Assembly (NCBI GenBank): GCA_964016885.1
Contig: OZ024745.1
Span: 63,798,001-63,862,000 of the forward strand
Direction of reading: 5' to 3'
Length of the DNA stretch: 64,000 bases
Source of the DNA: Eledone cirrhosa
Taxonomy: Eukaryota
The position numbers and the translations under genes are program-made. The notes beneath the pieces are model-generated. The model was not told where the DNA came from, made no database searches, and was given only the letters and a program-made list of their open reading frames with translations. This document shows, one piece after another, positions 5,476 through 61,640 of the stretch; position 1 is the stretch's first letter; each line of letters opens with the position of its first letter.

Positions 5476-5950
5476 TATAAACGGAAAAAATGAAACGAAA
5501 TTTCATTTCCCACTCTTAGTACGGCTGTTACTTAAATATAAGTATGTACACGTACTAAGAGTGGGAAATGAAATTTCATTTCATTTTTTCCGTTTATCGT
5601 TTTCGGTGCACCCAGCCGATTAACCCACTCGATATGCAAATTGAGCTACTCAGCCGTTAATGTGCATAAGGTAAGTATATACGTTCAACAATCTGGCAGA
5701 AAGATATACGTTGTTGACGATAGCTAATAAGCTTGAAACTAGTACAGCGTTCCTTTGTCAGTGTTGAACAAACGAGAACGGTGGTTGCTAGACACTACGG
5801 CTTAATACGGGATGTTTGTTTACAAACACACCGAGCATTATAATAAATTTTCGGTGAATCCATACGTACATATATATATGTGTGCATATATGTATATATA
5901 TATACATACTACTGTACGTCTGTATACATATATGAATGTACGTGTACCTA

Positions 5951-5955
<5 letters not shown>
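5476..5955 (+). mobile_element. Dispersed, diverged copy of the 472-bp HHR repeat family with a short inverted left arm
   Basis: Homologous to the reverse complement of the 50.1-52.7 kb unit. Hairpin at 5476-5598, octamer ATGCAAAT at 5634-5641, flanked by (TA)n. Confidence 0.8.
5708..5750 (+). ncRNA. Hammerhead ribozyme, mutated core (UUGACGA)
   Basis: acgttg-TTGACGA-tagc taataa gctt-GAAA-CTAG-TA-cagcgt. Confidence 0.65.
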
Positions 5956-6003
<48 letters not shown>

Positions 6004-9389: not shown

Positions 9390-9426
<37 letters not shown>

Positions 9427-9467
9427 AAAAGAACAAAGGAACTATTATGACATTATAACCAGTTTAT

Positions 9468-9514
9468 TGCCGACAGCCGTTTCGTCCGACCCCATGGTAG
9501 GACTTATCAAGGCA
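9468..9514 (-). ncRNA. Hammerhead ribozyme, U3-A8 core variant
   Basis: tgcc-TTGATAA-gtcc..ggac-GAAA-C ggct G-TC-ggca. Confidence 0.75.
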
Positions 9515-10513
9515 TATAACATGTGATTGCAAGATCATTGTTTACATCAACGTATCACTCAAGGCTAGCAGTTTGAAATTGTTGTATACATCAGCAACTC
9601 CGCTTGTATGGTTGGGGTCAATATTCTAAGGGGGGCTCTTTTATATTAGTTGTCGGGGTCAGGGATTGAAGTTTAAAAATTAGACAAAAATATATAATTT
9701 ACGCATCAACATTAAACTAAAAGACTTGGGGTCCCGTAGAAGCACCTTAGAAAATCCCTCAATGAGTGCATAAAGCTTACAGGCTCCAATAAACCTATTA
9801 GACTAGAAGAAAATTAAGAGGCTAATAAAATAAGAAAATAAAAATATAAAGTTTCCCTAAAAACTATATAAAGTTCCTATGAAATTTCTTCTAGAGAAAA
9901 AAATTTTTTTCCGAAAGAAAAAAACCTTCTTCCCCCGAGATCACGTTTACAAAATTCAGAAAACTGAATTGAAAACTAGGTTGAAAGAAACTAATCAATT
10001 AGAGGTTTATTCAGAGAGCCTTCCATAAATCTCTCAGAAAAGGCCCCTTTAATATTTCCAATAGGAACTTCCTCCGAGAGACCCTTCGAAGAATTAAAAT
10101 TTTAGAGAGCCTTTAAGGATAAATATAAAAACGAATTGAGGAAAATTATACATTAAAAGTTAAAAATTAAAAATTACGGTATTTGGGATATCCGAGGAAT
10201 TTTCAAAGGGCTGCTTCAACAGATACAACTTAGGCATAATAGATACAATAATCTAAGCAAATTAAGTAATTTAATTAGGGAGCAATTCAAGGAGTTTATC
10301 AAGTTGGGCAAGATTAAAGAAAGCGGTAACTAAGAAAATACATAAGCAAAAAGACAATAATTATAAAATGTATCTTTAAGAAGGTATAAGAGCCCCCCTT
10401 AGAATATTGACCCCAACTATACAAGCGGAGTTGCTGATGTATACAACAATTTCAAACTGCTAGCCTTGAGTGATACGTTGATGTAAACAATGATCTTGCA
10501 ATCACATGTTATA

Positions 10514-10560
10514 TGCCTTGATAAGTCCCACCATGGGGTCGGACGAAACGGCTGTCGGCA
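10514..10560 (+). ncRNA. Hammerhead ribozyme, U3-A8 core variant
   Basis: tgcc-TTGATAA-gtcc caccatggggtc ggac-GAAA-C ggct G-TC-ggca. Confidence 0.75.
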
Positions 10561-10724
10561 ATAAACTGGTTATAATGTCATAATAGTTCCTTTGTTCTTT
10601 TTCACTAATATTTATGCTCTGCATATACGCATAGAGCTTAACTAGCTACCGTCACATATTTGGTAAGTCAGACGTGATCATCGCGATTCACATACGACCT
10701 ACCATACATCTTACTTATATATAT

Positions 10725-12097: not shown

Positions 12098-15000
12098 TTA
12101 GTCCGTTTGAGCACACATGGCCTCTTGGCGTAAACCCTCTTGGTAGACAATGTTCTTTGTTTTCCCTCGTGGAGTGCACGCGAAAAGACTTCCTTTGCTC
12201 CTCACTCTGGAGCAGCCTACGTATAGTTGACCGTGTGATAAGCATGATTCTACCAAGTGAAGTCCTGCCACCGAAAGTGTCTGCCCCTGGAACTTGTTGA
12301 TAGACATGGCAAAACTTATGCGAAGCGGAAATTGAAGGCGTCTGAAGCTAAACGGAATTTCTGCACCTGATAGAATGAGTGGTATTCTGGGAACGAACAC
12401 ATCATCTCCTTTTCCACACCCTGAAATAATGGTGGCTTCACCGACGTGCTGCATTACCTTCTTTACAACCAGACGTGCGCCGTTGCAAAGTTTTGGAGGG
12501 TCCAAATTCCTAAGAAGCATTATTGGCGCTCCAAATTTTAGTCATAACCAATTCACGTCTTGTTAGTTATCAGGAATACTGGGAAACACTTGAGCCCTGA
12601 GGTCCTCGACTGTGTTGACAGTGGTACAAATCGGATTGAGTGACAATTCACCATCTCCATCGAGGGTGATACCATCGCCAAGTGATAAAATATCCAAAGC
12701 AAACTCTGCTGCCAGTTGTTCGCCGTGCAGTTGGGCTCTCATGTTAGTTGTCAGGGTCAACGTTGTTACCTTTTGCCACAACGGAGAGGACTTGAGGCAC
12801 GCCTGGACTTCATCTGCCCTGGTTCTATTTGGAGTGACGGGAAGGGTCTGTCGGAAGTCCCCGGATAGGAGAATGGTGACGCCTCCCATCGAAGTCTGGT
12901 AGTCTCTGATGTCTTGCAAAGTAGTGTCTAGTGTTTCCAGAGCTCGTTGATGGGCCATGGCCATGGTACATTCATCCCACACTATGAGCTGACACGTTTG
13001 GAGAACCAGTCCCTTGTCCGAAGTTTTGCTAATGTTGCAGGACGGTGTTTCGGATGTTGCCAAGTTCGGGGGGAGCCGAAAAAGCTGAGTGCGCTGTCTT
13101 ACCGCCGGGTAACAAAGTTGCAGCAATACCAGAGGATGCCACAGCTAACGCGATGTACTTGTGCTGCCTCACTTTGTCTAGAAGAAGCTTAGTTACAAAC
13201 GTTTTTTCTGTCTCTCCAGGTGCAACTAGGAAGAAGATTCCCCCTTTCCGGTTTCGCACATGGTCGAAAATAGTGTTGTAGGCCCGCTGCTCTCCCGGAA
13301 GGAGTTTTGGTTCTGTTTCACGGACGTATTAGGAAAGAACGTCAATATCATAGGCTGTTTCGGGAATGAGCTCTGTCGGAAGGTTATCCATCTCTGTCCG
13401 TACTGGTTGCGGCAGCCCGTACGTTGGCAAAGTATTCCCACCCAGTGAAACAGTCCTGTTTTCCACGTCAATCAAAGCACAGTTGTAGACGTCGTCACTG
13501 GCAGCATCAAGGCTAGGATACCGCAATTGTGCTTGGTGGTAAAAGTCTTCCGCCAGGTCATCTCTATACTTCAACCACAGAGAGACGGGATCTGAGACTT
13601 CGCAAATGTGCAGGAGCACTGCAAAGATAGCCCTGAGACTTTTCGGCGACTGTGAAACGGCAGCCTCCGCGAGCATAGCATCCCACTGTGCGCAGTCTTC
13701 TAACAGTCCATGTCTTAAGTAGGCCTCTCTGAGTGAGTGTAGGTTAAATCCACGCCCGAATGGACCATGAACCATGTTTGCCCGCACTATGTCAAAGAGG
13801 TTTTTGTCAACAGAGGGATTCGGGAGTTCTGCAGACATAAACCTGTCAATGTTGATGGAGTTAATCTTTGTTGACATCCAAATAACAATATGGGCATGTG
13901 GCAGACCCCTTTTTTTCCACTCAACTGTGTACATATCGCATTTTACAGGCCCAAATACCTGTCCTTTCTTGATAAGGTCCATGAGTTTCTGTAACTTCAG
14001 TCGGAAGACCCTGGCTAGAAGGTCATGCCTGTCTTTGACCTTCTGGCCTTGGAAGAGTTCAGCTTCGATCTCCTTCCACTTGGGGTTTCAGGTAAAGGTA
14101 ATGAATAAGTCGGGCCGACCGTAATGACGCACATATGTCTTGGCGTCTTGCGTCCTCTCATGCATATACCGCGGACCCCCGGTGAAGGTGGAAGGCAAAA
14201 TGCACACCTGGCCTAAGCCTCCCGGAGCAACGTCATTGTTGATACCATCTCGAAGGTGAGTGTAACTCTCTGAACGCAGCTTTTGTTGGTTGTACCTGAT
14301 ATAGCGCAGCCTCTCGGACTCCATTTTGGCGCACATGTCGACTACAAATTGATAGAATAGCTCGCGTGAACTGTGGAGATGATTCAGACAGTTGCTTCGG
14401 GTCATGAAGCAGTATGCGTAGAACTCCATGCAGGAAACTTGTTTGTTGCTACTCTCGTCTGGTCTGTGAGGATTACGCTGGTGAATGCCCAAATGGTAAC
14501 CGTCTTCTCCATTCACGAAGAGCAAGGTGTATTGTAGCGCGTCATAGGATCTGTGGGTTTCGCTGATTCGCTTAAGAGTGTTGTCGCGACACGTGAGAAC
14601 GATGTCCCTTGGATTTTTCTGCTCACCTTCAAGCACAATGGCGATTTCGTTGCATGTAGGCGGATTATAGCGGCCAGCATGCTCTCCAGATGGCCGTTTG
14701 TCAGCATTAATGACAACATTAAAATTGGGGATTGATGCTGTTTCTAACGCATACTTAAAATTCTGCACATAACTGTTTTTTTAATGTAACATCTCTTGGA
14801 GAAATTAGTGCCGGGTGATATACTGTTTCGTATTCTCGCTTGCTCTTGGTAGCTGCCAACGAAGTACAGTTGAAGAAACTCAGACTCTTAGTTCACAACA
14901 CACTGCCAAATATTTCTACGCTGGGCGATACTCTCCAGGTGATCCCGTCAGGCGTCGGAGGTCTCAGAAGCTCGGGCGGCAGCAGTTGGTGCAGCATTTT

Positions 15001-20099: not shown

Positions 20100-22501
20100 C
20101 AGGGGTCCCCAACCTTTTTGGTCCGTGGGCCGGATAGCCATGCAGCGGTAGATCCGCGGGCCGGATACGCAATTAATACTACTTATATACAAATAAGTAA
20201 TCCTTTATTTATCCCTTATGTTAGATTTAAAACAAAATTCAATATTGATGTCCCAAGCAGAAAAATACATTTAAACATTGTTTTATTCGGCAATATCGAT
20301 AGATCGGGTGCGAATTTATTGCAAACTACTCTTTTTATGTACCACGAAATAATAAATTGAATAACTCAAAACACCAATCCTCCGGAATAATGAAAGCCAT
20401 TAAAGAAAATAAAGTTTTAATGAGAAATCTGTTTCTGTTTATCATTTGACAATTTTTCAATATCAGGTGAAATCGTTGTCGATGACAGAAGCAAGACATC
20501 ATCCAAATGATCGTCCCGTAATCTTGTTCTCAATCGATTTTTCGTGAACTTCATCTTCGAAAATAGTTGTTCGCAGGAATAGGTACTTCCAACTAATGAA
20601 GCCATCATTTTTTGCATTATACGGGAGGCTTGGATACTTTCCAGTTGGAAGAAGATACTTCTAGTGGAATTCAGTGATACTCTCAGATTGAAATTTTGAC
20701 TTTAAGAGATGATTACACTGTAAGTCTATGAAGTCTAACTGATATTTTTCCTCGACTATTTCTGCATCTGTTTCAAAGGGTAAACCAAATAGTTTCAATT
20801 GCGTTTCATGCTGTCGGAAGTCGGCAAATCGGGAAGAAAACTCATTTCTTAAAACTTGAATGGCCTTCACAAAAATACCTTGAGTAATGTCGTCTGTACG
20901 ATTTTGGAGATTCGGAAAATGACGGAAATTACCTTTCTGTAACTACAAGTCCCACAATTGAAGTTTACGTTCAAATGCTGTGACGTGGCGGAACTTATCA
21001 TAAATTAACTTATTTTGCCCTTGAAGTTCAAAATTCAATGAATTCAAGTAATTTGTCACGTCGACCAAAAACGCTAGTTTAGCCATCCACTTTGGATCAG
21101 TAAAGTGTCTTGTATCTTGTCCTTTTATCTCCAAAAATTGGACAATTTCTTCCCGCAACACGTAAACTATCTGCAGAATTTTGCTACGGCTGAGCCATCG
21201 GACGTTTTAGAAATAAGTTAAATCACCATATTCTGCTTCAACCTGCTTGAGGAACTCCTGAAATTGGCGATGTTTAAGCCCTCTTGAAAGGATGAAATTA
21301 ACTATTTTCACAACTTCTGTCATAATATCTTTGAACTCCAATGACTTTGCACAAAGTGCGTCCTGGTGGATAATGCCATGGAGTCTGGTTAATTGGCGAT
21401 GGTGTCCAATGTGCTATTGAAGTAGCGTAACGAACCCCTTTTGGTCCCCAATCATCGCTGGTGCTCCATCGGTGGTTACGCCAATGAGTTTTGATAAATC
21501 AATATTATTCTTTCTTGTCCATTGTATAATTTTCATGAAAGTATCGGCGCCTGTAGTCGTGTCCTTCGGGGGAATTAATTGTGCGAATTCTTCAACGATA
21601 TCAAACGTTGGTGTAACACCCCTTACAAATACAGCTAACTGAGAGGTATCAGTAATATCGGTTGTTTCGTCAATGGTCATTGTGAAGTACTCAAGTTTGT
21701 TCAACATATCCCCATATTACGGTTGTAGCTGATAAGCTGATGGAAGAAAAGAGATAGATTTTTTCTGGACAGACAGTATGAACAACTTTCAACATGCACT
21801 CTTTAATAAAATCAGAAAATGGTTTCATTCTCTCTGCTTGGGCAGTCCTGCCTGTTTCTTTAACCTTCTTAGTAAAAAACGATGTTTGTTTTGTGAAACA
21901 GCTTTTCAGACGTTCAACTTCCTCTTCTCGGGCCGCACCAATTAAATTGTTATAATGATCATGACGAGTTTCATAATACCCCTTGATATTGGAAACTTTC
22001 TTCATGGCAACAGTTTCATGACAAATCAAACAAATACATTTGCTTTGGTGCTCTATGAATAAGTAGGCAAATGTCCATTCTTGATTAAAATTTTGGCACT
22101 CAAAATCCACTTTTTTGTTATAAGTCAAGAGATCCTGGAAAAGAAGGCAAAATGTATGAAAAAGAATGATGGTGATCGTCAAACACAAGTGAAAAGTGAT
22201 TGTAGACAAAGCCTGCGCATGCGCTGTAGATGTTTTATTTTACCAAAAATAAGATGCCGTACACCTGCGCAGCTGTGTTGTGACATACGCAAACAATAGG
22301 GTCAACATCATTGGCGTTCACGCATGTGCGTCTCGTAAAAATAGACGGATAGGTAATGCGAAATACTGCTGAATTCTGGAGTGTGATTTGAGATAAATGA
22401 AATCTTGAAATTTACGAATTCCCGTAGAACATTCGCAGGGGCCGGATTGAAACCCTTTGCGGGCCGGATGTGACCCGTGGGCCGGTGGTTGGGGACCCCA
22501 G
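20100..22501 (-). mobile_element. hAT DNA transposon (Buster/Charlie/SPIN-like), near full length, decayed
   Basis: TIR CAGGGGTCCCCAACC at 20100 and GGTTGGGGACCCCAG ending 22501. Imperfect 8-bp TSD ctcTAtaa / ctcTAtgg. Confidence 0.92.
20417..22134 (-). pseudogene. hAT transposase (BED-like CxxC, DDE, dimerisation domain), multiple frameshifts
   Basis: CLICHET, IDETTDITDTSQLAVFVR, VTTDGAPAMIG, WMAKLAFLVDVT and GSTYSCEQLFSKM. A pyrimidine-rich acceptor ttttccag| precedes 22134. Confidence 0.9.
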
Positions 22502-26315: not shown

Positions 26316-26381
<66 letters not shown>

Positions 26382-26614
26382 TTAGAAACACACAGATACA
26401 TGCGGACACACACATATATACATGAATGCATCCGCACCCAACTGTGAGTTAAGGGTGCCAACTTCACCGATGTTGCTCAATGAATGACTGGGACAGGCCA
26501 ATTCAGTTGAACTAGACTGAACCAGTATCAGAGTTAAAAATACATTATGAAGAGAGAAGAAACATTTAGATATAATTAGTAATAAAATGTATCATACCTA
26601 AACTGCTCCTAAAT

Positions 26615-26698
26615 TCCTCGACCACGTAGTTTCGTGGCATAAACAAAAACAATATATCATAAAGATATATTGCGAGGTCTGCCGACTTATCAAGAGGA
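26615..26698 (-). ncRNA. Hammerhead ribozyme, U3-A8 core, long stem II
   Basis: Reverse complement of the 27368 motif with one G-U change in stem III. Confidence 0.75.
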
Positions 26699-27367
26699 TA
26701 CCTCATTTTACTAGTCTCAAGAACGCGTCTACACGACGTGAGAAAGAATCCCAAAAGGCGGAGGGGGAGATAGTCACGCGATATAACGGTCGAGAAACAG
26801 AGCTAAGCCTCTTATAACCCCGAAGAAAATACCACGGAGGCGGAGGGGGTATTTATATCGAGGCCGTAGAAGAGGTGGTGAAGAAGGCGAGAAGTATGAG
26901 TAATGGAAGCTTTCCAGCTGTCCCCACACTTCAAAGATTGCTCGACCAGAGGGAGTTATTAACAATATATTTAGAAACACACAGATACATGCGGACACAC
27001 ACATATATACATGAATGCATCCGCACCCAACTGTGAGTTAAGGGTGCCAACTTCACCGATGTTGCTCAATGAATGACTGGGACAGACCAATTCAGTTGAA
27101 TTAGACTGAACCAGTATCAGAGTTAAAAATACATTATGAAGAGAGAAGAAACATTTAGATATAATTAGTAATAAAATGTATCATACCTAAACTGCTCCTA
27201 AATTCCTCGACTACGTAGTTTCGTGGCATAAACAAAAACAATATATCATAAAGATATAGAGTTCTTGCGAGGTCTGCCGACTTATCGCGTGACTATCTCC
27301 CCCTCCGCCTTTTGGGATTCTTTCTCACGTCGTGTAGACGCGTTCTTGAGACTAGTAAAATGAGGTA

Positions 27368-27451
27368 TCCTCTTGATAAGTCGGCAGACCTCGCAATATA
27401 TCTTTATGATATATTGTTTTTGTTTATGCCACGAAACTACGTAGTCGAGGA
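27368..27451 (+). ncRNA. Hammerhead ribozyme, U3-A8 core, long stem II
   Basis: tcctc-TTGATAA-gt(c)ggca..tgccac-GAAA-CTA CG TAG-TC-gagga. Confidence 0.8.
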
Positions 27452-27956
27452 ATTTAGGAGCAGTTTAGGTATGATACATTTTATTACTAATTATATCTAA
27501 ATGTTTCTTCTCTCTTCATAATGTATTTTTAACTCTGATACTGGTTCAGTCTAATTCAACTGAATTGGTCTGTCCCAGTCATTCATTGAGCAACATCGGT
27601 GAAGTTGGCACCCTTAACTCACAGTTGGGTGCGGATGCATTCATGTATATATGTGTGTGTCCGCATGTATCTGTGTGTTTCTAAATATATTGTTAATAAC
27701 TCCCTCTGGTCGAGCAATCTTTGAAGTGTGGCGACAGCTGGAAAGCTTCCATTACTCATACTTCTCGCCTTCTTCACCACCTCTTCTACGGCCTCGATAT
27801 AAATACCCCCTCCGCCTCCGTGGTATTTTCTTCGGGGTTATAAGAGGCTTAGCTCTGTTTCTCGACCGTTATATCGCGTGACTATCTCCCCCTCCGCCTT
27901 TTGGGATTCTTTCTCACGTCGTGTAGACGCGTTCTTGAGACTAGTAAAATGAGGTA

Positions 27957-28046
27957 TCCTCTTGATAAGTCGGCAGACCTCGCAAGGACTCTATATCTTT
28001 ATGATATATTGTTTTTGTTTATGCCACGAAACTACGTAGTCGAGGA
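27957..28046 (+). ncRNA. Hammerhead ribozyme, U3-A8 core, long stem II
   Basis: Same as 27368 with 6 extra nt confined to the stem II loop. Confidence 0.8.
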
Positions 28047-28135
28047 ATTTAGGAGCAGTTTAGGTATGATACATTTTATTACTAATTATATCTAAATGTT
28101 TCTTCTCTCTTCATAATGTATATATATATATATAA

Positions 28136-29474
28136 CGGCGATGAATTAGTTTTGCGAGGTTTTTGATATGAAATCGTGTGTCGAAACAAATATTGTTATA
28201 CTTGGGGAGGGTCATATTTGTGTAATATTGGCAGAATTAATAACAGAACACACTCACTGTTTGGTTGGTTTTCGCTTTTCGCTTCTGCGTCCTTTATATC
28301 GGTTAATTTAATTTATTCGGTCCTCAATGTTGCCATTGACTGACCAACGGTCAAAAATACAGATACAATATAGTCTAACAAAGTTCTTTCGTTGCACATC
28401 TGCAACATCGTCAGTGGTGCTATTATGTTTCCTCCCGTTGTATTGTATGCTTACGCCAACTTTATTTAGTCCGTTTATTTATTTATTTGTTTATTTGTTT
28501 GTGTTCTCTGCGCATACGTTTGCGTGTGTGTATAGTGTTTTGTTTGATGTGTGTTCGTGTTTGGGTGACTGGCAATATTATTACACAAATATGACCCTCC
28601 ACAGTTAATTTATTCGGTCCTCAATGTTTACCATTGACTGTCCAACGGTCAAAAAATACAGATATAATATAGACACAAACACATATATATAGTTTATCAA
28701 AGTTCTTTCGTTGCACATCTGCAACATCGTCAGTGGTGCTATTTTTCCTGCCGTTGCATTGTATTTTCTACGCCATCTTTATTTAGTCTGTTTATATATT
28801 TATTTATTTGTTTATTTTTTGTCTTCTTTGCGCATGCGTTTGCGTGTGTGTATAGTGTTTTGTTTGATGTGTGTTCGTGATTGGGTGATTGTGTATTGGT
28901 TAATGTATTCTATCTTTACTAGTGTGTATTTATGTGTTTGTTGTTATTGTGCTTGTGTATGTATTTATTTATTTATCTATTTATTTATATATTTATACTT
29001 CTCTTAGGTCAGTATTGTTTGTTTGGGTGTTGTTGTTATTCCATTCATTTTTTCTGTTTAGCCTTGGCCTTCTCAGTTCTATTTCACTGGCCTCTTTTAT
29101 TTGCCTATCTGCTGCGTCATTTCTATGTTTAGATATTATTCTAATTTCTATGTTGTCTATGTTACCGTCGTGTTGTGGTCTGGCATGTTCGTATAGTACT
29201 GAACCGTTTTTTCGTCCTTTTAGTTCCCCCCAGTGTTGGTCTATCCTTTCACCTATGCTACGAGCTATCTCGCCTATGTATGTTGTTGTCATGTATCTGC
29301 AAGTACCCTCTGTTCATCTTATGCTATAGACTACTTTTCTAGTTTTACAGTTTATCCGGGGATTTACCTTACATATGATACATTTCCTATTAGTACAGCG
29401 AAAACCAACCAAACAGTGAGTGTGTTCTGTTATTAATTCTGGCAATATTACACAAATATGACCCTCCCCAAGTA

Positions 29475-29478
<4 letters not shown>
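28136..29478 (-). mobile_element. Penelope-like element fragment with ~80-bp inverted repeats (28196-28275 / 29398-29478) and an internal duplication
   Basis: GIY-YIG remnant inside, 28310-28570 duplicated at 28607-28890, flanked by TA tracts. Confidence 0.75.
28993..29345 (-). pseudogene. GIY-YIG endonuclease (PLE)
   Basis: VVYSI..TYIGEIARSIGERIDQH..SVLYEH..H..RQIKEASEI..RPRLNRKNEW. Confidence 0.85.
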
Positions 29479-29543
<65 letters not shown>

Positions 29544-31180: not shown

Positions 31181-31616
31181 ATTTGGTCTCCTAGTTAGAA
31201 TTTTAGTCTACGCTTTCTGCTATACCATTTACGTGGTTTTGTCTTTGCGTTCTATTGTTCTCCACATATGACTCATTATCTTCGTTTTTTCGTTCATTGC
31301 CAGAGAACGTCTCTATGCACCACCTAAGAGAACATTAGTCTACGACCTCTTTTATACCATAAACGTGGTTTTGTCTTTGCGCGTAATTGTTTTCCACCGC
31401 TCCTATTAATGACGTATTATTCATTTTTTCCCGTTCTTTGCGAACGTTCCAGCGAACGTTACCACGAACCAAAGTATCGTCTTCCTGTTTTCCTCCGGTT
31501 GCAACGTTTTTTGAAATATCCAGTTCTGCGTTTACAGATTGACTTTGTTAGTTTCAGAAGATCCCGTTAAGGGTGAAAGCAGCGATTCTTTGCTTAAACT
31601 TTAATCTGTTATTTCA

Positions 31617-31704
<88 letters not shown>

Positions 31705-32140
31705 TGAAATAACAGATTAAAGTTTAAGCAAAGAATCGCTGCTTTCACCCTTAACGGGATCTTCTGAAACTAACAAAGTCAATCTGTAAACGCAGAACTG
31801 GATATTTCAAAAAACGTTGCAACCGGAGGAAAACAGGAAGACGATACTTTGGTTCGTGGTAACGTTCGCTGGAACGTTCGCAAAGAACGGGAAAAAATGA
31901 ATAATACGTCATTAATAGGAGCGGTGGAAAACAATTACGCGCAAAGACAAAACCACGTTTATGGTATAAAAGAGGTCGTAGACTAATGTTCTCTTAGGTG
32001 GTGCATAGAGACGTTCTCTGGCAATGAACGAAAAAACGAAGATAATGAGTCATATGTGGAGAACAATAGAACGCAAAGACAAAACCACGTAAATGGTATA
32101 GCAGAAAGCGTAGACTAAAATTCTAACTAGGAGACCAAAT
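31181..32140. repeat. ~440-bp apparently perfect inverted repeat centred on a ~80-bp (TA)n
   Basis: 31181-31621 is the reverse complement of 31700-32140. Confidence 0.9.
31550..31600 (+). ncRNA. Hammerhead-like fold with A4 core variant (mirror copy 31721-31771, minus)
   Basis: agttt-CAGAAGA-tccc gttaa gggt-GAAA-gca gcgattctt tgc-TT-aaact. Confidence 0.65.
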
Positions 32141-32627: not shown

Positions 32628-32710
32628 AAAGTTTTATTTAAAATTGTTGGGTTACAGCAAGTAAATATTTTATAACTGATATAAAGCACTCAACAAGTTT
32701 TGGAGTAGAT

Positions 32711-33258
32711 ATACGATATTAAACAAATGGAAACTATATTTATAAAACCATATTTATTTCATTATACATATTTCGGGGATACCATATTAAAAATATGGCA
32801 TGCCTTCTTCAGATAAAATACAATATATAAACAGTTTTATAAATAATTTTGACGTACCATAAATATTGATCAACTTTTATGTAAGAAGTTGGTTTGGTAG
32901 TGAAATGTTTATAAATATTTAGTGTTAAGCACAGTTAAAAAGAAAGACGGAGAAAAAGAAGAAATGTATGTAAAGAAAAACATTTCTCTCTGTTTTTCTT
33001 TACATACATTTCTTTTTTTTCTCCGTCTTTCTTTTTAACTGTGCTTAACACTAAATATTTATAAACATTTCACTACCAAACCAACTTCTTACATAAAAGT
33101 TGATCAATATTTATGGTACGTCAAAATTATTTATAAAACTGTTTATATATTGTATTTTATCTGAAAAAGGCATGCCATATTTTTAATATGGTATCCCCGA
33201 AATATGTATAATGAAATAAATATGGTTTTATAAATATAGTTTCCATTTGTTTAATATC

Positions 33259-33261
<3 letters not shown>
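32711..33261. mobile_element. Head-to-head palindromic insert (~270-bp arms) with HHRs at 32761-32817 (-) and 33156-33212 (+)
   Basis: Centre at ~32983-32990. Cores are CTGAAGA (left arm) and CTGAAAA (right arm). The family also occurs at 49880-50035. Confidence 0.75.
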
Positions 33262-33351
<90 letters not shown>

Positions 33352-33590: not shown

Positions 33591-35587
33591 CAAAGTTGAG
33601 TTATTTTAAAACCTATTCGTTTGGAATATGATTCATTTCTATGTTATCAAACATATAAAGTACTATTGGAATATATGCTTCATTTTGTAAGGCAGCGGAT
33701 TCAGTTTCCAAGATATTTTGCTCTTAGCTCTAACATGTCAGCCAACCATGTAGTGTTTCTTTCATTATCTTTTTGGTGACATAGTGATTACGTTTTGGGG
33801 TTGTGAGAGCAGTATGTTAATACCAGATACACGGACAGTTTATAGAATGGCAGTAACTGGTCATAACTAATGTGTTTTAAATTTGAAGAAACATAGCGTT
33901 TGAGTAATAGTTTTCACTATTTTTTGAAGCCCATTTTGACGATATGGTTTAAGCAGCTTTGCCATATAACATTTCTCATAATAATTCAAAATAATAGCAT
34001 AAGTACTATGTCAATTTAACGAATCACCTATTAATTTAAAGTGTCCCCACTCACTTCATTGTCCACATTTAATTTAGCCGTCGACAAAACCTTTCGATTC
34101 TATACAATTAAATGCCATTTAGTGAGACTTGACAAGTGACAGAAGAATGTATTGATGGCCTCATTGACTCTCATTAATTATTTTGTAACAGCTTGGACAA
34201 AATATAATAGGATGTCAAGTGCCTTTTGACACGACCTAATAAATTGATTACAAAGATATAATATTTACGGCGTAAAACACTCTAAACGAAGCTTCGTACT
34301 TGAATACAGTTATCCTTAAGAATTTACTCTGCCTTTCAAGATGTTCATATAATTGTAATCTATGTTTCTTGACGCTTCGTGAGAAACTGTCTCTAAACAC
34401 GTTTTCTTCTAAAACGTATGGTGCTGGTAACTTATGGTTTTGTTTGCGAAATAGAAACAAAATTTTGTTGAAGTTTCCTTCCCCAAACTAAGTGGAAGTC
34501 GATTGCTTATAGTATTTTTTTGATTCCAATGTTTTCATCCTTTCCGTTTTATTTTTCAACATTTCAGAATGGAGAATAATTGATAGAAATTGTTTAATGC
34601 CAAACCAAACAACATAATGTTGTTAATTGATTTATCCTGTATAAAGAGTATTTCTATAATATGCACCAAAATTCTAACACATACTAAAACAGTTTAACCA
34701 GAAATGGGTAAAGGCAACCAAGTTAAAATAATAGACGGACATTTTACGACTGAACATCTAGGTGCCTTGAAACAGATTTCAACGAGAATATATTCCTCCG
34801 CTGAAAACGGAAAACGTACAATAATAATAACATATTTGAGAAAAGATACTGATGATAGATTTTTAATCATACGAAGTTCCACCGAACGGAGAAGGCTAAG
34901 ATCTCGATGCAACAATTTCAAATGATACAACAAACGTCGAAAATTATATGAGGTTCATTAATTTGACACTGAAATATATAGGTAATGGAAAATAATAGAA
35001 AACTTATCGAACATCTCTATTAATTTATATATTATTTCATTTCGCAATGCCATAAATTGGATGTATTTTAACTAAAATTTGACTGATTGATACATACAAA
35101 CGACGGATTCTGTGCACGTTAAACCCAGCTGATGCACATAGATATAGATTATTTTACAAAAGGTATGTTGACTTTCGATAACGTAAACCAGAATTAATTA
35201 ACTGACAAACATATGGTAAGATTGGTCTTGGTCTAAATAACTTTGATTATCAACGTGTTCGCTCAAGCGAGATGGATATTAAACAACAAGAACAACACTA
35301 TGGTCAACAACACAAAGATCAGCAGCAGCAATATCATCCCATTGAAATATATTGGTAGATATCGTTTAAAAATCAGCATTGGTTTTAGACGGTGAAGGTA
35401 ATATGCCTCCTGATTTTTAAAATCGTTTCAATGATAATAGCATCAAATATGGATTGCCATTGCTACAAATGTGTTCGAAATTAAATGTCAGATATTCCAG
35501 CAATTACTATCTGATGGCTTTACTACATATCTTTATCTGATTAAAAGGTCTGGTACAATTCTTCAAAATTGAACAAATGTTTATATA

Positions 35588-36482
35588 CGAGGTGTGTCAG
35601 AAAAGTTCCAGGACTGATGTCACAAAAGATTTATTTCAATCCCAAACTTCACACTAAGAGTTTTCTCCTTCAAAGTAATCTCCCTGGAGTCTAATGCACC
35701 TTTCCATCCTTTTCTGCCACGCTTGCATGCACTCCAGGAAGGATTCTTCCGGGATCCTCTGCAGTTCCGTCGTCACGGCCTTTTTGATGTCGTCCACGTC
35801 TTCAAAACGGGTTCTCTCCGGGTCGTACTCGAAGATCCATGACTCATCACTAGTGATGACTGTCCCTAGAAAGTCTGGTTCGGTTTCAAGACGCTCGAGG
35901 ATGTCCTGGTACACTTGCATGCGTCGAGCCTTCTGATCATCATTCATCAGTTTTGGCACCATCTTCGCGCAGACTTTCCGCATGTCCAAATCGTCAGTGA
36001 GAATCTTCCAGACGCTGTCCCGATTCATGCCCAGCTCATTTGCCATGAGTCGAACAGTCAGCCGACGATGGCTACGCACCATCTGACTGACGCGCTCAAT
36101 GCTGACCTCAGTCCTGGTTGTTGCGGGCCTTCCGCTCCTGGGTCATCTTCCACGTCCTCGCTTCCTTCTTTAAACCTCTTGCACTACTCCAACACACGTG
36201 AGCGTGACATCGTCTAATCTCCATAAACTTGCTGCAGCAATCCCTGTGCTTGTGACGGAGTTTTCAAGTTTGTTCGTTGCTCTGTGCTCATTGCTTGACG
36301 ACCTGAAACAGAGGACATGTATATAAAATTATGAAGAAAAAAGTTTGATCGCTGCTGAGAGCTAAGATTACAGTTACATACTCCAGGGGAATTACTTTGA
36401 AGGAGAAAACTCTTAGTGTGAAGTTTGGGTTTGAAATAAATCTTTTGTGACATGAGTCCTGGAACTTTTCGGACACACCTCG
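35588..36482 (-). mobile_element. mariner transposon, internally deleted
   Basis: TA-CGAGGTGTGTC.GAAAAGTTCCAGGAC inverted termini. Transposase remnant RKVCAKMVPK..VITSDESWIFEYDPE is fused directly to RFEDVDDIK..W.KRMERCI..GDYFEG, so the YSPDL region is missing. Confidence 0.92.
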
Positions 36483-36653
36483 TATAAGACAGTCACAGGC
36501 ATCAGCCTATAATTAAGAAGTTGCTTCGTAAAGAACTGATTGCGAGTTCGATTCCAATGACGAAACATTTGGACAAGAGTATCTAAATTGGACTAAGGTG
36601 AACCAATGGATTGTTTGTGGTAATTGGCAGGGAGAAATTGTACGGAGGCCCTC

Positions 36654-44634: not shown

Positions 44635-44852
44635 TATAGATATAGATAGATAGATATATATATGGATGTATATGTATATAGAAAAGAAATATGATTTCGC
44701 TTCAAGCATAGCTTTATACAATATGTATAGAAATTTCGTATTTCAAAAGAAATACGATTTTAGGAAGCCGTAGCTATGCGAACACCGTGTGGGGGGGGGG
44801 GGGGGGGTGCTAACACCCTCTGGTAGGTGTTGTCCAGAAAGCAAGGGAGACA

Positions 44853-44896
44853 ACCGTCTATGCATTTCAGGCTTGACTGGCCATCGTCAGGACGAT
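44853..44896 (-). ncRNA. Minimal hammerhead ribozyme
   Basis: atcgtc-CTGACGA-tggc cagtcaa gcct-GAAA-TGCA-TA-gacggt. Confidence 0.85.
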
Positions 44897-45093
44897 CCCT
44901 CCCACTGCTCTGCAACTGCTGGACTTGAAAACAGCTGAGAATATATACTTTTCTCGTCTGTGTAAATGAGGTGATTAATCTCATTTGCATATGAAGCTGC
45001 ATAAGTTGGCTCAACTTATAATAGAAATGAAATAGGATTTCGCTTCAAGCATATCTTTATACAATATGTATGAGCCAACTTATGCAGCTTCAT

Positions 45094-45170
45094 ATGCAAA
45101 TGAGATTAATCACCTTATTTACACAGACGAGAAAACTATATATTTTCGGCTGTTTTTAAGTCCAGCAGTC
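45094..45170 (+). promoter_or_regulatory. Putative promoter: octamer, TATATA, initiator-like GCAGT
   Basis: ATGCAAAT at 45094-45101, TATATA at 45137, and the A of GCAGT at 45167 (30 nt after the TATA start). Mirrored at 44990/44947/44917. Confidence 0.5.
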
Positions 45171-45187
45171 GCAGAGCAGTGGGAGAG

Positions 45188-45231
45188 ATCGTCCTGACGA
45201 TGGCCAGTCAAGCCTGAAATGCATAGACGGT
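45188..45231 (+). ncRNA. Minimal hammerhead ribozyme
   Basis: atcgtc-CTGACGA-tggc cagtcaa gcct-GAAA-TGCA-TA-gacggt, with palindromic ATGCAT stem III. Confidence 0.85.
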
Positions 45232-46299
45232 TGTCTCTCTTGCTTCTGCTGGACAACACCTGAGGGCGTTATCCCCCCCCCCCCCGGTGTTCGCATAGCT
45301 GCGACTTTCTAAAATCGTATTTCTTTCGAAATACGAAATTTCTCTCTCTATATATATATATAGAGAGAGAGAGAGAGCGAGAAAGTCGTTTGTGTATGTA
45401 TACCTATACGTATTCATCATGTGTGTGTACGTATACCTATACGTATTCATCATATACATTTTCAGTTTTATACATATTGGTGTTACCTTATATATACCAG
45501 CTCACCTCGACCAAAGTATGGTTCAACATAGATTTGAGGAGAAAGAATACAGCTCTTTAACTCATAAACGACAATCGGTCACGATATCTGGAACCTTCAA
45601 ATCTGTAAAATATTCTTTCGATTCAATGGATAAATGATTGCCCAACGACCAACGAAATCTCCTCTTTACCACCGTTCCACCGGGAAGGTTGCTGATCAAA
45701 CATAAACTCAAAATTAAGCAAAGGAAACAGTGTTTTACACATTTTAGGTCATTTGTTTTGAAATGAACTTTTCCTGGATATTATTTCAACGGTATTATGT
45801 AATCTTAATTGAAATAAATTTGAATTTTTGTAATGATTGTGTGTAGCAAGCACTCTTAATAGTGCATGGGATAAAAAAGACTTGCAATATGCATTTTGAG
45901 AAAGAAATACTATTAATCATATGACAACCCATTTAATATCAAGAGTCAAATTTGCCATATTGTCATACACATTCAGAAATAAAATAAACCAAGAAGAGTA
46001 CCATTATAAAACAAAATAAAAAAGAGTTATCACCTAATAAAATTGTCATAAATCATATAAATGTAACTAAACAGAAATGAAGGAATGGGGTTAGTTCTAA
46101 TGAAATATGACGATATTCTCAAGACATTGCATTCACATATTTTTCGATACAGTTACATCGACTTAGTTATGCAAATTATAAAGAGCATTAAATCACTATT
46201 CTGTATTCACAGTGGCAGCTCAACGATATGAAACATGCCCTCAAGAATAACTCGAGGTAGCAAGGAAGTGAAATATCAACTGCAAAATAATATATAAAT

Positions 46300-49725: not shown

Positions 49726-49763
<38 letters not shown>

Positions 49764-49924
49764 TGCATGCATGTATATTTTTCTTTCTATCCGTCATTTT
49801 CTAATTGTCCTTAACACTATGACTTATTAAAGTTATATAAACAATTCACTATCCGGATGACTTCCAGAAACAATGGTTGCATTTTAATAGGGTATGTCAA
49901 AGCTTATTTGTAAAACTGTTATAT

Positions 49925-49980
49925 ATTGTCTGATGAAGGCATACCATAATTTAATTTGGTATCCCTGAAATATGTATAAT
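49925..49980 (+). ncRNA. Hammerhead ribozyme (33-kb family)
   Basis: attg(t)-CTGATGA-agg catacca..tggtatc cct-GAAA-tatg-TA-taat. Confidence 0.6.
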
Positions 49981-50032
49981 GAAATAAATATGGTTTTATA
50001 AATATAGTTTCCATTTATTAATATCGTATATC

Positions 50033-50103
<71 letters not shown>

Positions 50104-50345
50104 AGTATGCATGTATACGTACATACATATATGTATACAGACGTACAGTAGCATGCACATATATATATATATATACATATATACATACATATGCATACAG
50201 GTACACATACATATATGCACGTATCAGTTTAGCGGCGCTTATTATAACGTCGCTTTGTTCGTTTGTAAACAAACTGAACAGCCTGAATTTATGCCATACG
50301 GTGTTAAGGCAACCACGTCACCTTTTTGTTCAACACTGACACAGG

Positions 50346-50390
50346 AACGATGTACTAGTTTCAAGCTTGTTAGCTATCATCAGCACCGTT
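50346..50390 (-). ncRNA. Minimal type-I hammerhead ribozyme (unit 1)
   Basis: aacggtg-CTGATGA-tagc taacaa gctt-GAAA-CTAG-TA-catcgtt; 7-bp stem I, GUA triplet. Confidence 0.9.
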
Positions 50391-50396
50391 TACCCA

Positions 50397-50471
50397 TCTG
50401 CCAGATAGTTGAACGTTCGAAAGTATATACTTTCCTTATGAAAATTAACGGCTGAGCAGCCTAATTTGCAT
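50397..50471 (-). promoter_or_regulatory. Putative promoter in each array unit: octamer, TATATA, GCAG
   Basis: Octamer at 50471-50464, TATATA from 50429, and the A of GCAGA at 50399. Confidence 0.45.
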
Positions 50472-50823
50472 ATTGAGTGAGTTAAATCGGTCAGGCATAC
50501 CGAAAACGATAAATTGAAACAAAATGAAAACGAAATTTCATTTCTCACTCTTAGTATGGCACTTACTTAAATGTAAGTATGCATGTATACGTACATACAT
50601 ATATGTATACAGACGTACAGTAGCATGCACATATATATATATATATATATATACATATATACATACATATGCATACAGGTACACATACATATATGCACGT
50701 ATCAGTTTAGCGGCGCTTATTATAACGTCGCTTTGTTCGTTTGTAAACAAACTGAACAGCCTGAATTTATGCCATACGGTGTTAAGGCAACCACGTCACC
50801 TTTTTGTTCAACACTGACACAGG

Positions 50824-50868
50824 AACGATGTACTAGTTTCAAGCTTGTTAGCTATCATCAGCACCGTT
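50824..50868 (-). ncRNA. Hammerhead ribozyme (unit 2)
   Basis: Identical to unit 1. Confidence 0.9.
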
Positions 50869-51296
50869 TACCCATCTGCCAGATAGTTGAACGTTCGAAA
50901 GTATATACTTTCCTTATGAAAATTAACGGCTGAGCAGCCTAATTTGCATATTGAGTGAGTTAAATCGGTCAGGCATACCGAAAACGATAAATTGAAACAA
51001 AATGAAAACGAAATTTCATTTCTCACTCTTAGTATGGCACTTACTTAAATGTAAGTATGCATGTATACGTACATACATATATGTATACAGACGTACAGTA
51101 GCATGCACATATATATATATATATACATATATACATACATATGCATACAGGTACACATACATATATGCACGTATCAGTTTAGCGGCGCTTATTATAACGT
51201 CGCTTTGTTCGTTTGTAAACAAACTGAACAGCCTGAATTTATGCCATACGGAGTTAAGGCAACCACGTCACTTTTTTTGTTCAACACTGACACAGG

Positions 51297-51341
51297 AACG
51301 ATGTACTAGTTTCAAGCTTGTTAGCTATCATCAGCACCGTT
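51297..51341 (-). ncRNA. Hammerhead ribozyme (unit 3)
   Basis: Identical to unit 1. Confidence 0.9.
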
Positions 51342-51768
51342 TACCCATCTGCCAGAAAGTTGAACGTTCGAAAGTATATACTTTCCTTATGAAAATTAAC
51401 GGCTGAGCAGCCTAATTTGCATATTGAGTGAGTTAAATCGGTCAGGCATACCGAAAACGATAAATTGAAACAAAATGAAAACGAAATTTCATTTCACACT
51501 CTTAGTATGGCACTTACTTAAATGTAAGTATGCATGTATACGTACATACATATATGTATACAGACGTACAGTAGCATGCACATATATATATATATATACA
51601 TATATACATACATATGCATACAGGTACACATACATATATGCACGTATCAGTTTAGCGGCGCTTATTATAACGTCGCTTTGTTCGTTTGTAAACAAACTGA
51701 ACAGCCTGAATTTATGCCATACGGTGTTAAGGCAACCACGTCACCTTTTTGTTCAACACTGACACAGG

Positions 51769-51813
51769 AACGATGTACTAGTTTCAAGCTTGTTAGCTAT
51801 CATCAGCACCGTT
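51769..51813 (-). ncRNA. Hammerhead ribozyme (unit 4)
   Basis: Identical to unit 1. Confidence 0.9.
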
Positions 51814-52240
51814 TACCCATCTGCCAGAAAGTTGAACGTTCGAAAGTATATACTTTCCTTATGAAAATTAACGGCTGAGCAGCCTAATTTGCATATTGAG
51901 TGAGTTAAATCGGTCAGGCATACCGAAAACGATAAATTGAAACAAAATGAAAACGAAATTTCATTTCACACTCTTAGTATGGCACTTACTTAAATGTAAG
52001 TATGCATGTATACGTACATACATATATGTATACAGACGTACAGTAGCATGCACATATATATATATATATACATATATACATACATATGCATACAGGTACA
52101 CATACATATATGCACGTATCAGTTTAGCGGCGCTTATTATAACGTCGCTTTGTTCGTTTGTAAACAAACTGAACAGCCTGAATTTATGCCATACGGTGTT
52201 AAGGCAACCACGTCACCTTTTTGTTCAACACTGACACAGG

Positions 52241-52285
52241 AACGATGTACTAGTTTCAAGCGTGTTAGCTATCATCAGCACCGTT
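52241..52285 (-). ncRNA. Hammerhead ribozyme (unit 5)
   Basis: One change in loop II only. Confidence 0.9.
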
Positions 52286-52965
52286 TACCCATCTGCCAGA
52301 TAGTTGAACGTTCGAATGTATATACTTTCCTTATGAAAATTAACGGCTGAGCAGCCTAATTTGCATATTGAGTGAGTTAAATCGGTCAGGCATACCGAAA
52401 ACGATAAATTGAAACAAAATGAAAACGAAATTTCATTTCTCACTCTTAGTATGGCACTTACTTAAATGTAAGTATGCATGTATACGTACATACATATATG
52501 TATACAGACGTACAGTAGCATGCACATATATATATATATACATATATACATACATATGCATACAGGTACACATACATATATGCACGTATCAGTTTAGCGG
52601 CGCTTATTATAACGTCGCTTTGTTCGTTTGTAAACAAACAGAACAGCCTGAATTTATGCCATACGGTGTTAAGGCAACCACGTCACCTTTTTGTTCAACA
52701 CTGACAGTAAGTGCCATACTAAGAGTGAGAAATGAAATTTCGTTTTCATTTTTTTTCAATATATATATATATATGTGTAGATAAATCTACCAAGAGTTTA
52801 CGGTAGTGTCCAATCCGTATGAAGAACTCAATGTAATCCGGATATCATGGAAAGAAGAGATGCAATGAAAAATCACTTTCGGTGAAAGATAAACGGAATA
52901 CAGAGTCAAGATAAAATTTTTTTTTTTTTTTTTTAATATTTTAAAATTTTTAATTTTTTTAATAT

Positions 52966-59882: not shown

Positions 59883-61440
59883 TGCTCGTTCAATTAATAC
59901 TAAGAAGAAATGTTTTCTAATTGCCGTTTCAATCCGCATTGACAATATATATATAAGAAATGAGGAAATGAGTTATATATAAAGATTTAGAGATAGATAT
60001 AACCCCGATATAGATGAGGAAATGAAAAAAACAACTGCTACAATAATAAAACTGATTTCTAATCTAGGTACAATGCTGTTGAGGTGGAATGATCGATTAT
60101 TATTGTTTCTCCAACACTTTATTGGCAGTATTTTGTCCGGACAAGATTGGCTGGAAAGTGAATCGACCCTGCTGAGACTTGGAATACACAGGACTGAACC
60201 GAACTAAGGGCAGCTTAATAAATACCGTAAGGTTTTTTGTCCAATACTCTATCGTATTTTCTATCCCCAGCTATATTCATAAAAAAGGAAGTGTATATTG
60301 CGAGGTGTGTAATCTTTGTATGAAATAAAGTAAGACAACCCGATGGAACGATATTCCAATGAACCATCGTCCATAGAAAGAAATATCAGGGACGAATACC
60401 AAACTTAAGAAATATTCGGTGACTGCTCAATACAAATCAGACAGTAAACTGTTCAATTTAGAGACGTATCTTAGAATAAATCTCACACGCACATAGATAA
60501 ACAACACAGTGTACAAAACATAGACCATTGAACAATAACATTAATCTTAATGATTCTGTATATAGAACAGCAGAGGCACTACTGGTAACATCTATTTAAA
60601 ATGCTATTTCCATTGCCGTTTTGCCACCTGAAACCCAACCATATCGCATACAAAATATATAGCAATAAACAAACTACTCAATGTTCAAACACACCGAAGT
60701 GTCGAATATAATACTATAAAACAATAAAAGCCGAATCACATACTAAGGAATAAAATTCATTACACAAAATGTGACATGCATGTTGCAATGATATATGAAG
60801 CAAACAGTACTTGAACTCTGAAATCTCTATTTACACCCCTAATGAGAACTGTTACATCAGTTTATATACTCCCTAAACATATGCAGTTATGTATTCCACT
60901 AATAAAGAGCGACAACAACAAATTTAAGATGGAAATATAGAAAATAAAACTATTCAAATGAATACAGTAAACAGAATAAAGAGATTCATGTCTCCACCAA
61001 CCCGATCAACCGGTCTAACGAGCCAGAAATCTGACTATAACTTCTAGCATGCTCTCATGCATTGTATTTGGAGAACACTTTGACACATACGATGCATCCT
61101 GCTACAAAACCTCAGTAATAAAATCAAAATGTGGAAGCACAATATCAATACAACTAAATCCACATTATATCGTAAATACCGTAAAGGAAAATAAACATAA
61201 ACCTCACCCATGTATCGACAATAATTCTTTTTTTGTGTGTCAATTTATTATTTACACACCTGGCTACCATAAACACATACCAAACACTCGACAGAGTTAA
61301 TGTAGACCATCTAACATCGACACACTTTCACACATTAATGAACCAAATTCAATCTTGTCTTTAGAAACTTTAAAGTGTAATTATTATTTCTAATGGATGG
61401 ATTTACACGACAAAAACCAATATATATATATATATATATG

Positions 61441-61640
61441 TAATAGGAACCAGTAAGACCCCGACAGCTGAGCTCAAGCCGTTTTGACGGCTAATTCTCT
61501 CAGAATTAGCCGTCGAAACGGCTTGAGCTCAGCTGTCGGGGTCTTACTGGTTCCTATTACCCACTCTACTACCTCAAGTATTGAGTACTTTGGTGCGTTA
61601 TGGTCCACCTGGTTCCTTACCACACTTCCTTCGTTATATA
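61441..61640 (+). mobile_element. Short retro-insert in (TA)n with 5' palindrome (24-kb family)
   Basis: Palindrome 61441-61559 centred at ~61500. Confidence 0.75.

Follow-up and report, generated by a model that had tools for sequence, protein, structure and literature searches.

Fixed, paired priming sites and multi-unit arms point to probable two-ended copying of a probably circular RNA in a hammerhead-bearing Penelope-like repeat of Eledone cirrhosa

How does an array of tandem repeats come to end in a short inverted piece of its own unit, with a (TA)n tract on either side? A locus in the window, the stretch of 64,000 nucleotides of Eledone cirrhosa DNA analysed here, raises this question, and an earlier note on the same DNA had answered it with twin priming of the L1 type on a multimeric or circular RNA. 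The locus (Table 1) reads as a two-armed, head-to-head insertion of a non-autonomous Penelope-like element (PLE) repeat that bears a predicted hammerhead ribozyme (HHR). Its long arm consists of 5.5 copies of a 472-bp unit with 98% matches. Read on the minus (HHR-sense) strand, it ends at CTTACAT and runs into (TA)n, as described in the earlier note, whose coordinates are accurate to one base; next to the left tract, G50101 is the first base that can be assigned to the element without ambiguity. The inverted piece starts with AGTAAGTGCC at 52706, finishes with TTTCAAT at 52760 and passes into (AT)8, measuring 55 nt with the A shared by both arms and 54 nt without it. With unit coordinates numbered from the predicted HHR cut, 254 is the last position of the long arm and 258 the first of the piece, which bears out the proposed gap of about 3 nt (TTA). 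The outer ends and this 3-nt adjacency are not due to chance. The GC content of the unit is 0.34, and no open reading frame of 150 aa lies in the array.

Table 1. Coordinates of the array, its predicted hammerheads and a second copy of the family (positions in the window)
Feature	Positions	Strand	Description
Left (TA)n target tract	50035-50100	none	read from the sequence
Long 'U' arm, 5.5 units	50099-52706	-	in RNA sense, 5' end at unit coordinate 12 and 3' end at 254 (site U, CTTACAT)
Predicted type I minimal HHR, unit 1	50346-50391	-	core 50359-50383, cut 50353|50352
Predicted HHR, unit 2	50824-50869	-	core 50837-50861
Predicted HHR, unit 3	51297-51342	-	core 51310-51334
Predicted HHR, unit 4	51769-51814	-	core 51782-51806
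Predicted HHR, unit 5	52241-52286	-	core 52254-52278, one stem II substitution
Units 3 and 4	51050-51994	-	two locus-private substitutions in common
Head-to-head junction	52706	none	1-nt overlap, A common to both arms
Short 'D' arm, PLE-type tail	52706-52760	+	unit coordinates 258-312, ends TTTCAAT
Right (TA)n target tract	52759-52774	none	(AT)8
Older second copy of the 472-bp family	5477-5983	none	~75% identical, U + D two-arm form

The surroundings are rich in other repeats. On either side of the array (49761-50034 and 52775-52915), a repeat from another family turns its end towards the TA tract; the left one bears an HHR-like motif close to 49930 and also matches a palindrome at 32706-33267. 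Head-to-head pairs of other families lie at 26376-28126, 28190-29483, 32706-33267, 44729-45343, 61440-61560 and 9421-10607; several of them have a one-sided tail and HHR-like motifs, and the window is dense in PLE-type insertions. A perfect 480-bp inverted repeat at 31181-32140 is arranged tail to tail around a central TA tract, so that its two sides show one and the same end; it is either a real fold-back or an assembly artefact. At 12563-14780, 3199-3804, 21691-22239 and 35584-36486 we found Helitron fragments (Helitron_like_N, PIF1), a reverse transcriptase (RT) fragment, a Spin-doc zinc finger and a 107-bp inverted repeat pair, the last resembling the ends of DNA transposons. Rfam microRNA matches in the window fell below threshold and were set aside as low-complexity noise.

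The family is abundant. Exact-pattern counts in the 3.0-Gb genome gave 10,391 occurrences for a 36-mer spanning the HHR core, 10,113 for a 22-mer taken from the inverted piece, 741 for the U end and 1,018 for the D end. We drew 140 stretches from one contig, C1 (40 by an internal 22-mer, 80 by the U end and 20 by a D end without an exact U partner), so that every locus except the window's comes from this contig, in which assembly polishing could homogenise units. The script misses arms shorter than about 140 nt in the low-complexity part, fetches of 7-10 kb clip long arms, and L203 was excluded as a segmental duplicate of L201. The usual copy has two arms head to head, with both 3' ends pointing outward into (TA)n. 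Words from 50700-51045 (at least half of those sampled) also appeared in 17 public-run rows, covering 12 studies and 12 organism labels plus a wastewater metagenome; these matches reflect either close relatives or horizontal spread.

The outer ends of these copies are fixed, at either site U (unit coordinates ~248-257) or site D (~310-316), about 60 nt downstream of U. Among the 78 distinct two-arm copies from the first two sets and the window, 14 were unclassed; all 64 classifiable ones were U+D, with not one U+U or D+D. When copies were picked by their U end (n=57), the partner was D in 48, U in none and unclassed in nine. The 20 loci chosen by their D end comprised 11 U+D copies, two more U+D by eye, a single D+D copy (L265) and six that were complex or had no readable partner. 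The older copy in the window likewise ends at U and D. A TA tract follows 64/64 U ends and 63/64 D ends, a count that was partly selected for. As the earlier note had supposed, each of the two (TA)n ends carries a primed 3' end. It had also seen AT microhomology at the outer end; an AT tract does adjoin, but in a TA target such microhomology is indistinguishable from chance. In the stretch L189 (1-9900), a young two-arm copy lies nested within a TA tract that belongs to an older array of its own family, whose unit resumes beyond it, and the TA on both sides is longer than in an intact unit; as read from the sequence, this one case shows that the TA target pre-existed. A flank search for paralogous empty sites gave 43 rows, with only repeat noise among the matches listed.

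The inverted piece of 54 bp is the U-to-D segment, which is the known tail of PLEs. By its distribution among the copies, this tail reads as near-obligate in the 472-bp family and present on exactly one arm. The segment has a predicted hairpin fold (z -3.1). The window locus belongs to a class of D arms that halt at U on their first pass: stops at 250-262 number 9/117 by script, or 13 with four added by eye, where 1.4 are expected (p=1e-5), whereas later passes over the same coordinates give three stops against 2.8 expected. The adjacency of the two pieces, taken up by the earlier note as the signature of its mechanism, is thus real at this locus but typical of a minority class only. As the stop is limited to the first pass, a hairpin pause at U is disfavoured as its cause, and we interpret the block most readily as the partner RT, or the primer of that RT, occupying U on one shared RNA. 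In 56/64 copies the D arm reads through U, so strand displacement would be needed, and both arms exceed one unit in 23/64 insertions. Where the arms meet, an overlap of at least 1 nt is present at 27/31 loci compared with 71/150 simulated joins (p=5e-6). Fillers or short templated repeats mark the centres of L142, L146, L163 and L040 (those of L142 include tandem 12-mers), which hints at end joining in repeated steps.

What kind of template yields arms of many units? That such arms reflect reverse transcription of a more-than-unit template, as the earlier note held, is upheld by their lengths, which follow an exponential distribution (means of 1.26 and 1.04 kb) and are independent between the two arms (rho -0.05). 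Successive HHR sites are crossed by 55, 35, 24, 17, 11, 8, 5 and 3 of 64 U arms and by 44, 29, 16, 10, 7, 6, 3 and 3 of 64 D arms; about 65% of arms survive each further unit, and the rate is constant out to 15 units. HHR junctions are of full length and scarless in 476/477 cases. Inner ends are spread round the unit and fall within 5 nt of the HHR cut in 3/126 cases, with 2.9 expected. Mapped against that cut, as the earlier note proposed, the genomic copies therefore have fixed outer ends but inner ends indifferent to it. The long arm of the window locus does stop at coordinate 12, which leaves 11 nt to the predicted cut, but as inner ends show no excess there, this distance is correct yet uninformative and attributable to chance. 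The same lack of excess favours a circle over a cut concatemer, between which the earlier note had not chosen. What looked like a cluster of inner ends there proved to be an edge artefact of the monomer reference and disappeared after circular refinement. Template jumping between cut monomers is likewise disfavoured, given the scarless junctions and the lack of ends at the cut.

Variants among units point the same way. We found 36 locus-fixed variants, 25 of them present in all units of both arms and 11 at loci where one arm was covered; with a further 97 singletons and 14 intermediate variants, the units within a locus are star-like. Several locus-fixed variants are private to one of the 64 loci, and such alleles, fixed in all units, need a single-unit bottleneck. 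Non-fixed variants are common to both arms at only 3/64 loci, and two variants (L057, L069) are discordant between arms. Divergence is 0.0025 within an arm and 0.0029 across arms (31 loci, p=0.54), 0.0023 between adjacent and 0.0017 between non-adjacent units, and 0.0085 between loci. With arms no more alike within than across, and neighbours no closer than distant units, stepwise growth at the DNA level is argued against as the rule. The later unequal crossing-over that the earlier note allowed for keeps a place at the window locus itself, where units 3 and 4 share two substitutions absent from all other loci among the 64, making one later duplication or conversion likely there. The tail of the window locus differs from its own five long-arm units by one substitution (coordinate 305).

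One further locus speaks to the form of the template. In the D arm of L153:884-6550 (G000:C1:160404900-160412900), two unit types that differ at five substitutions and in length (484/482) alternate strictly over 12 units, or six rounds, and the single U-arm segment bears the allele of the adjacent D-arm type, as expected with both primers on the same unit. This one case is a candidate record of a two-unit, heterodimeric circular RNA.

Each unit carries a predicted type I HHR. The motif combines a stem I of 7 bp with a helix III that is minimal and palindromic, and its predicted cleavage site is GUA. The prediction is supported by the core (CUGAUGA/CUGACGA), intact in 500/505 regex motif matches, and by older copies in which G.U is exchanged for U.G within stem I. 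At the base of stem II, however, a U.U replaces the usual G10.1-C11.1 pair. The window HHR scores 18.5 bits against Rfam HH9 (E=1; gathering score 52), which is why we treat it as a prediction. Minimal HHRs of PLEs are reported to cleave poorly in vitro (PMC4209133).

On balance we think it probable that a (TA)n tract was cut by a PLE enzyme acting as a pair and that both ends primed at two fixed sites on one circular RNA. Its components differ in strength: two-ended priming at programmed sites is very probable, priming on one RNA is quite probable, and the circularity of that one RNA is fairly probable. A tandem transcript would be cut by its hammerheads and ligated into a 472-nt circle; a PLE RT/GIY-YIG dimer would bind the hairpin-rich U-D segment, one RT starting at U and its partner at D; each would roll round with strand displacement, which is assumed, at a constant drop-off of ~35% per unit; and the two cDNA ends would be joined via microhomology. 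At the window locus, the D-primed RT would have copied 55 nt before it ran into its partner at U and halted, and the U-primed RT would have completed 5.5 rounds. Counted against this reading are the U.U in stem II, the poor in vitro cleavage of minimal PLE HHRs, an anole PLE study in which uncut RNA sufficed and start sites were alike between strands (PMC11167929), the read-through of U by most D arms, the single D+D copy, the tail mismatch at 305, the discordance at L057 and L069, the sampling from one contig, the possible homogenisation by assembly and the search for a partner PLE described below, which found none.

An unlikely alternative keeps U and D priming on one RNA but makes that RNA linear, a multimer that was transcribed from a source array and left uncut. 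It would accommodate the atypical HHR and the finding that uncut RNA is the dominant substrate of the anole PLE in vitro (PMC11167929); homogeneous arms would likewise be expected if the source array was homogeneous, and L153 could have copied a source with a two-unit repeat. However, the lack of an inner-end excess at the HHR cut and a drop-off that stays constant out to 15 units speak for an endless template, non-fixed variants are rarely common to both arms even though source arrays carry singletons, and the locus-private alleles require their single-unit bottleneck. It is improbable that two RNAs served, one per DNA end, in an asymmetric complex starting one at U and one at D. Dual priming of this kind, proposed for L1 (PMC2837659), would spare the RT from displacing its partner's cDNA and would suit the many D arms that run through U, the D+D copy and the two arm-discordant variants; yet it leaves unexplained why D arms stop at U on the first pass only and why locus-private alleles recur in both arms while loci differ by 0.0085, and it gives no reason for U+D over random pairs.

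We regard as very improbable a short insertion, or a self-primed fold-back cDNA, that was later amplified by unequal crossing-over, in which case the arrays would be uninformative on the RNA template. Local amplification has been discussed (bioRxiv 10.64898/2026.07.22.740005) and the private changes of units 3 and 4 would fit it, but the HHR site has already been passed in 55/64 U arms, the number of units shows no relation to divergence (rho -0.13, p=0.48), and the unit comparisons above reveal neither closer neighbours nor closer units within an arm. Self-priming has been proposed for rotifer PLEs (PMC3846280), and some centres are palindromic (L038, L144, L179, L265); most centres, however, join unrelated unit coordinates, and a fold-back predicts equal outer ends rather than U+D.

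Much of the architecture has precedents. The two-arm form is already published, and its source is the PLE machinery and not L1, as the one-sided tail of published PLEs and the in vitro work indicate. In PLEs with an inverted pLTR, as here, a 5'-truncated copy lies head to head, the tail is often at only one end of the insertion, targets are biased to (TA)n and the repeat bears an HHR (PMC3846280, PMC8557442); the tail has been ascribed to endonuclease resolution, or the inversion to self-priming, and the tandem and inverted structures to still undefined features of the cycle (PMC8557442). Unlike those elements, the 472-bp element is without an ORF, its tail measures ~60 nt rather than 30-40, both its arms can be long multimers, and the tail, called optional in the available accounts of PLEs, is near-obligate on one arm. 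The Anolis Poseidon PLE (PAc) resembles it in having two adjacent internal RT start sites that flank the tail in vitro, an AT-rich target, and cleavage and extension of both strands by a predicted dimer; HHR cleavage was unneeded in vitro, and start sites were alike between strands (PMC11167929). The available text of that study covers neither pairing within one insertion nor circular templates.

The L1-type twin priming proposed by the earlier note (PMC2837659) shares with our locus the priming of one RNA by both cut ends and the joining of inverted arms at their cDNA ends, but gives way to a PLE-type process: both sites are fixed and paired in 64/64 classifiable copies, unlike the variable internal site of twin priming, and the piece is a PLE tail. 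There is no poly(A) at the window locus, whose ends lie in (TA)n, where a TSD is unreadable; the second site is not scattered, the paired form is the normal product and not a variant, and the arms overlap on the template by whole units, being adjacent on the RNA in only 9-13/117 D arms.

The element itself reads as a non-LTR retrozyme of PLE type, new to that group. Like metazoan non-LTR retrozymes, it is a non-coding tandem unit below 45% GC with one type I HHR each (PMC7229834, PMC7761336, bioRxiv 10.64898/2026.07.22.740005), present in thousands of copies in a genome where PLEs co-occur, and the route proposed for retrozymes is more-than-unit cDNA from a circle. At 472 bp it slightly exceeds the 150-450 bp quoted for them, its helix III is minimal and palindromic, and the two-arm insertions and priming sites seen here are not described in the available text of their papers. 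Earlier reports had proposed that the RNA circularises once the HHR has cleaved and is then copied over more than one unit, without junction evidence in their accessible parts (PMC4209133, PMC7761336), and the mechanism of retrozyme mobilisation has been called open (bioRxiv 10.64898/2026.07.22.740005).

Autonomous PLEs of the genome with RT and GIY-YIG share this asymmetry, one arm halting at an upstream site and the other adding ~35-80 nt before the TA tract. By eye, the one-sided tail is present in 11/13 inverted pairs, including 7 of the 9 that hold an ORF, and in 5/10 pairs in the window. Candidate intact PLEs, with open frames of 844-1096 codons and GIY-YIG plus RT-type motifs, lie at L231:4309-7122, L233:2775-6062 and L232:2988-5519; Pfam places RT and GIY-YIG in L231 and L233, and the PLE ORF matched no solved structure. 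Homology of the unit to the pLTR of an autonomous partner was found in none of 40 GIY-YIG loci (of 10,596 candidates), the matches in L241 and L245 being separate insertions.

Three features, namely the near-obligate pairing of U with D, the stop on the first pass and the signature of a single-unit, endless template, together make up a mechanistic variant of target-primed reverse transcription. We did not find these three features in the searchable literature, although older PLE reviews and supplementary figures may hold parts of them. The young 472-bp family offers countable records of single integration events (paired starts, collision, constant drop-off and single-unit templates) that sharpen two standing hypotheses, on more-than-unit copying of a circle and on the origin of the tail and the inversion. 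We lean slightly towards a broader proposal, in which PLEs integrate by obligate two-ended priming with an RT dimer that straddles the tail hairpin and, from the two ends of a double-strand break, begins a cDNA to either side of this hairpin, and circular retrozyme RNA undergoes double rolling-circle reverse transcription. If true, obligate two-ended priming alone would yield inverted pLTRs, one-sided tails, partial tandems and retrozyme arrays, and L153 would record a heterodimeric circle rolled six times. Developers of gene-insertion tools may also take an interest in a site-programmed RT pair that fills a break from its two ends, and two-ended copying would explain the long-unexplained shape of Penelope-like elements.
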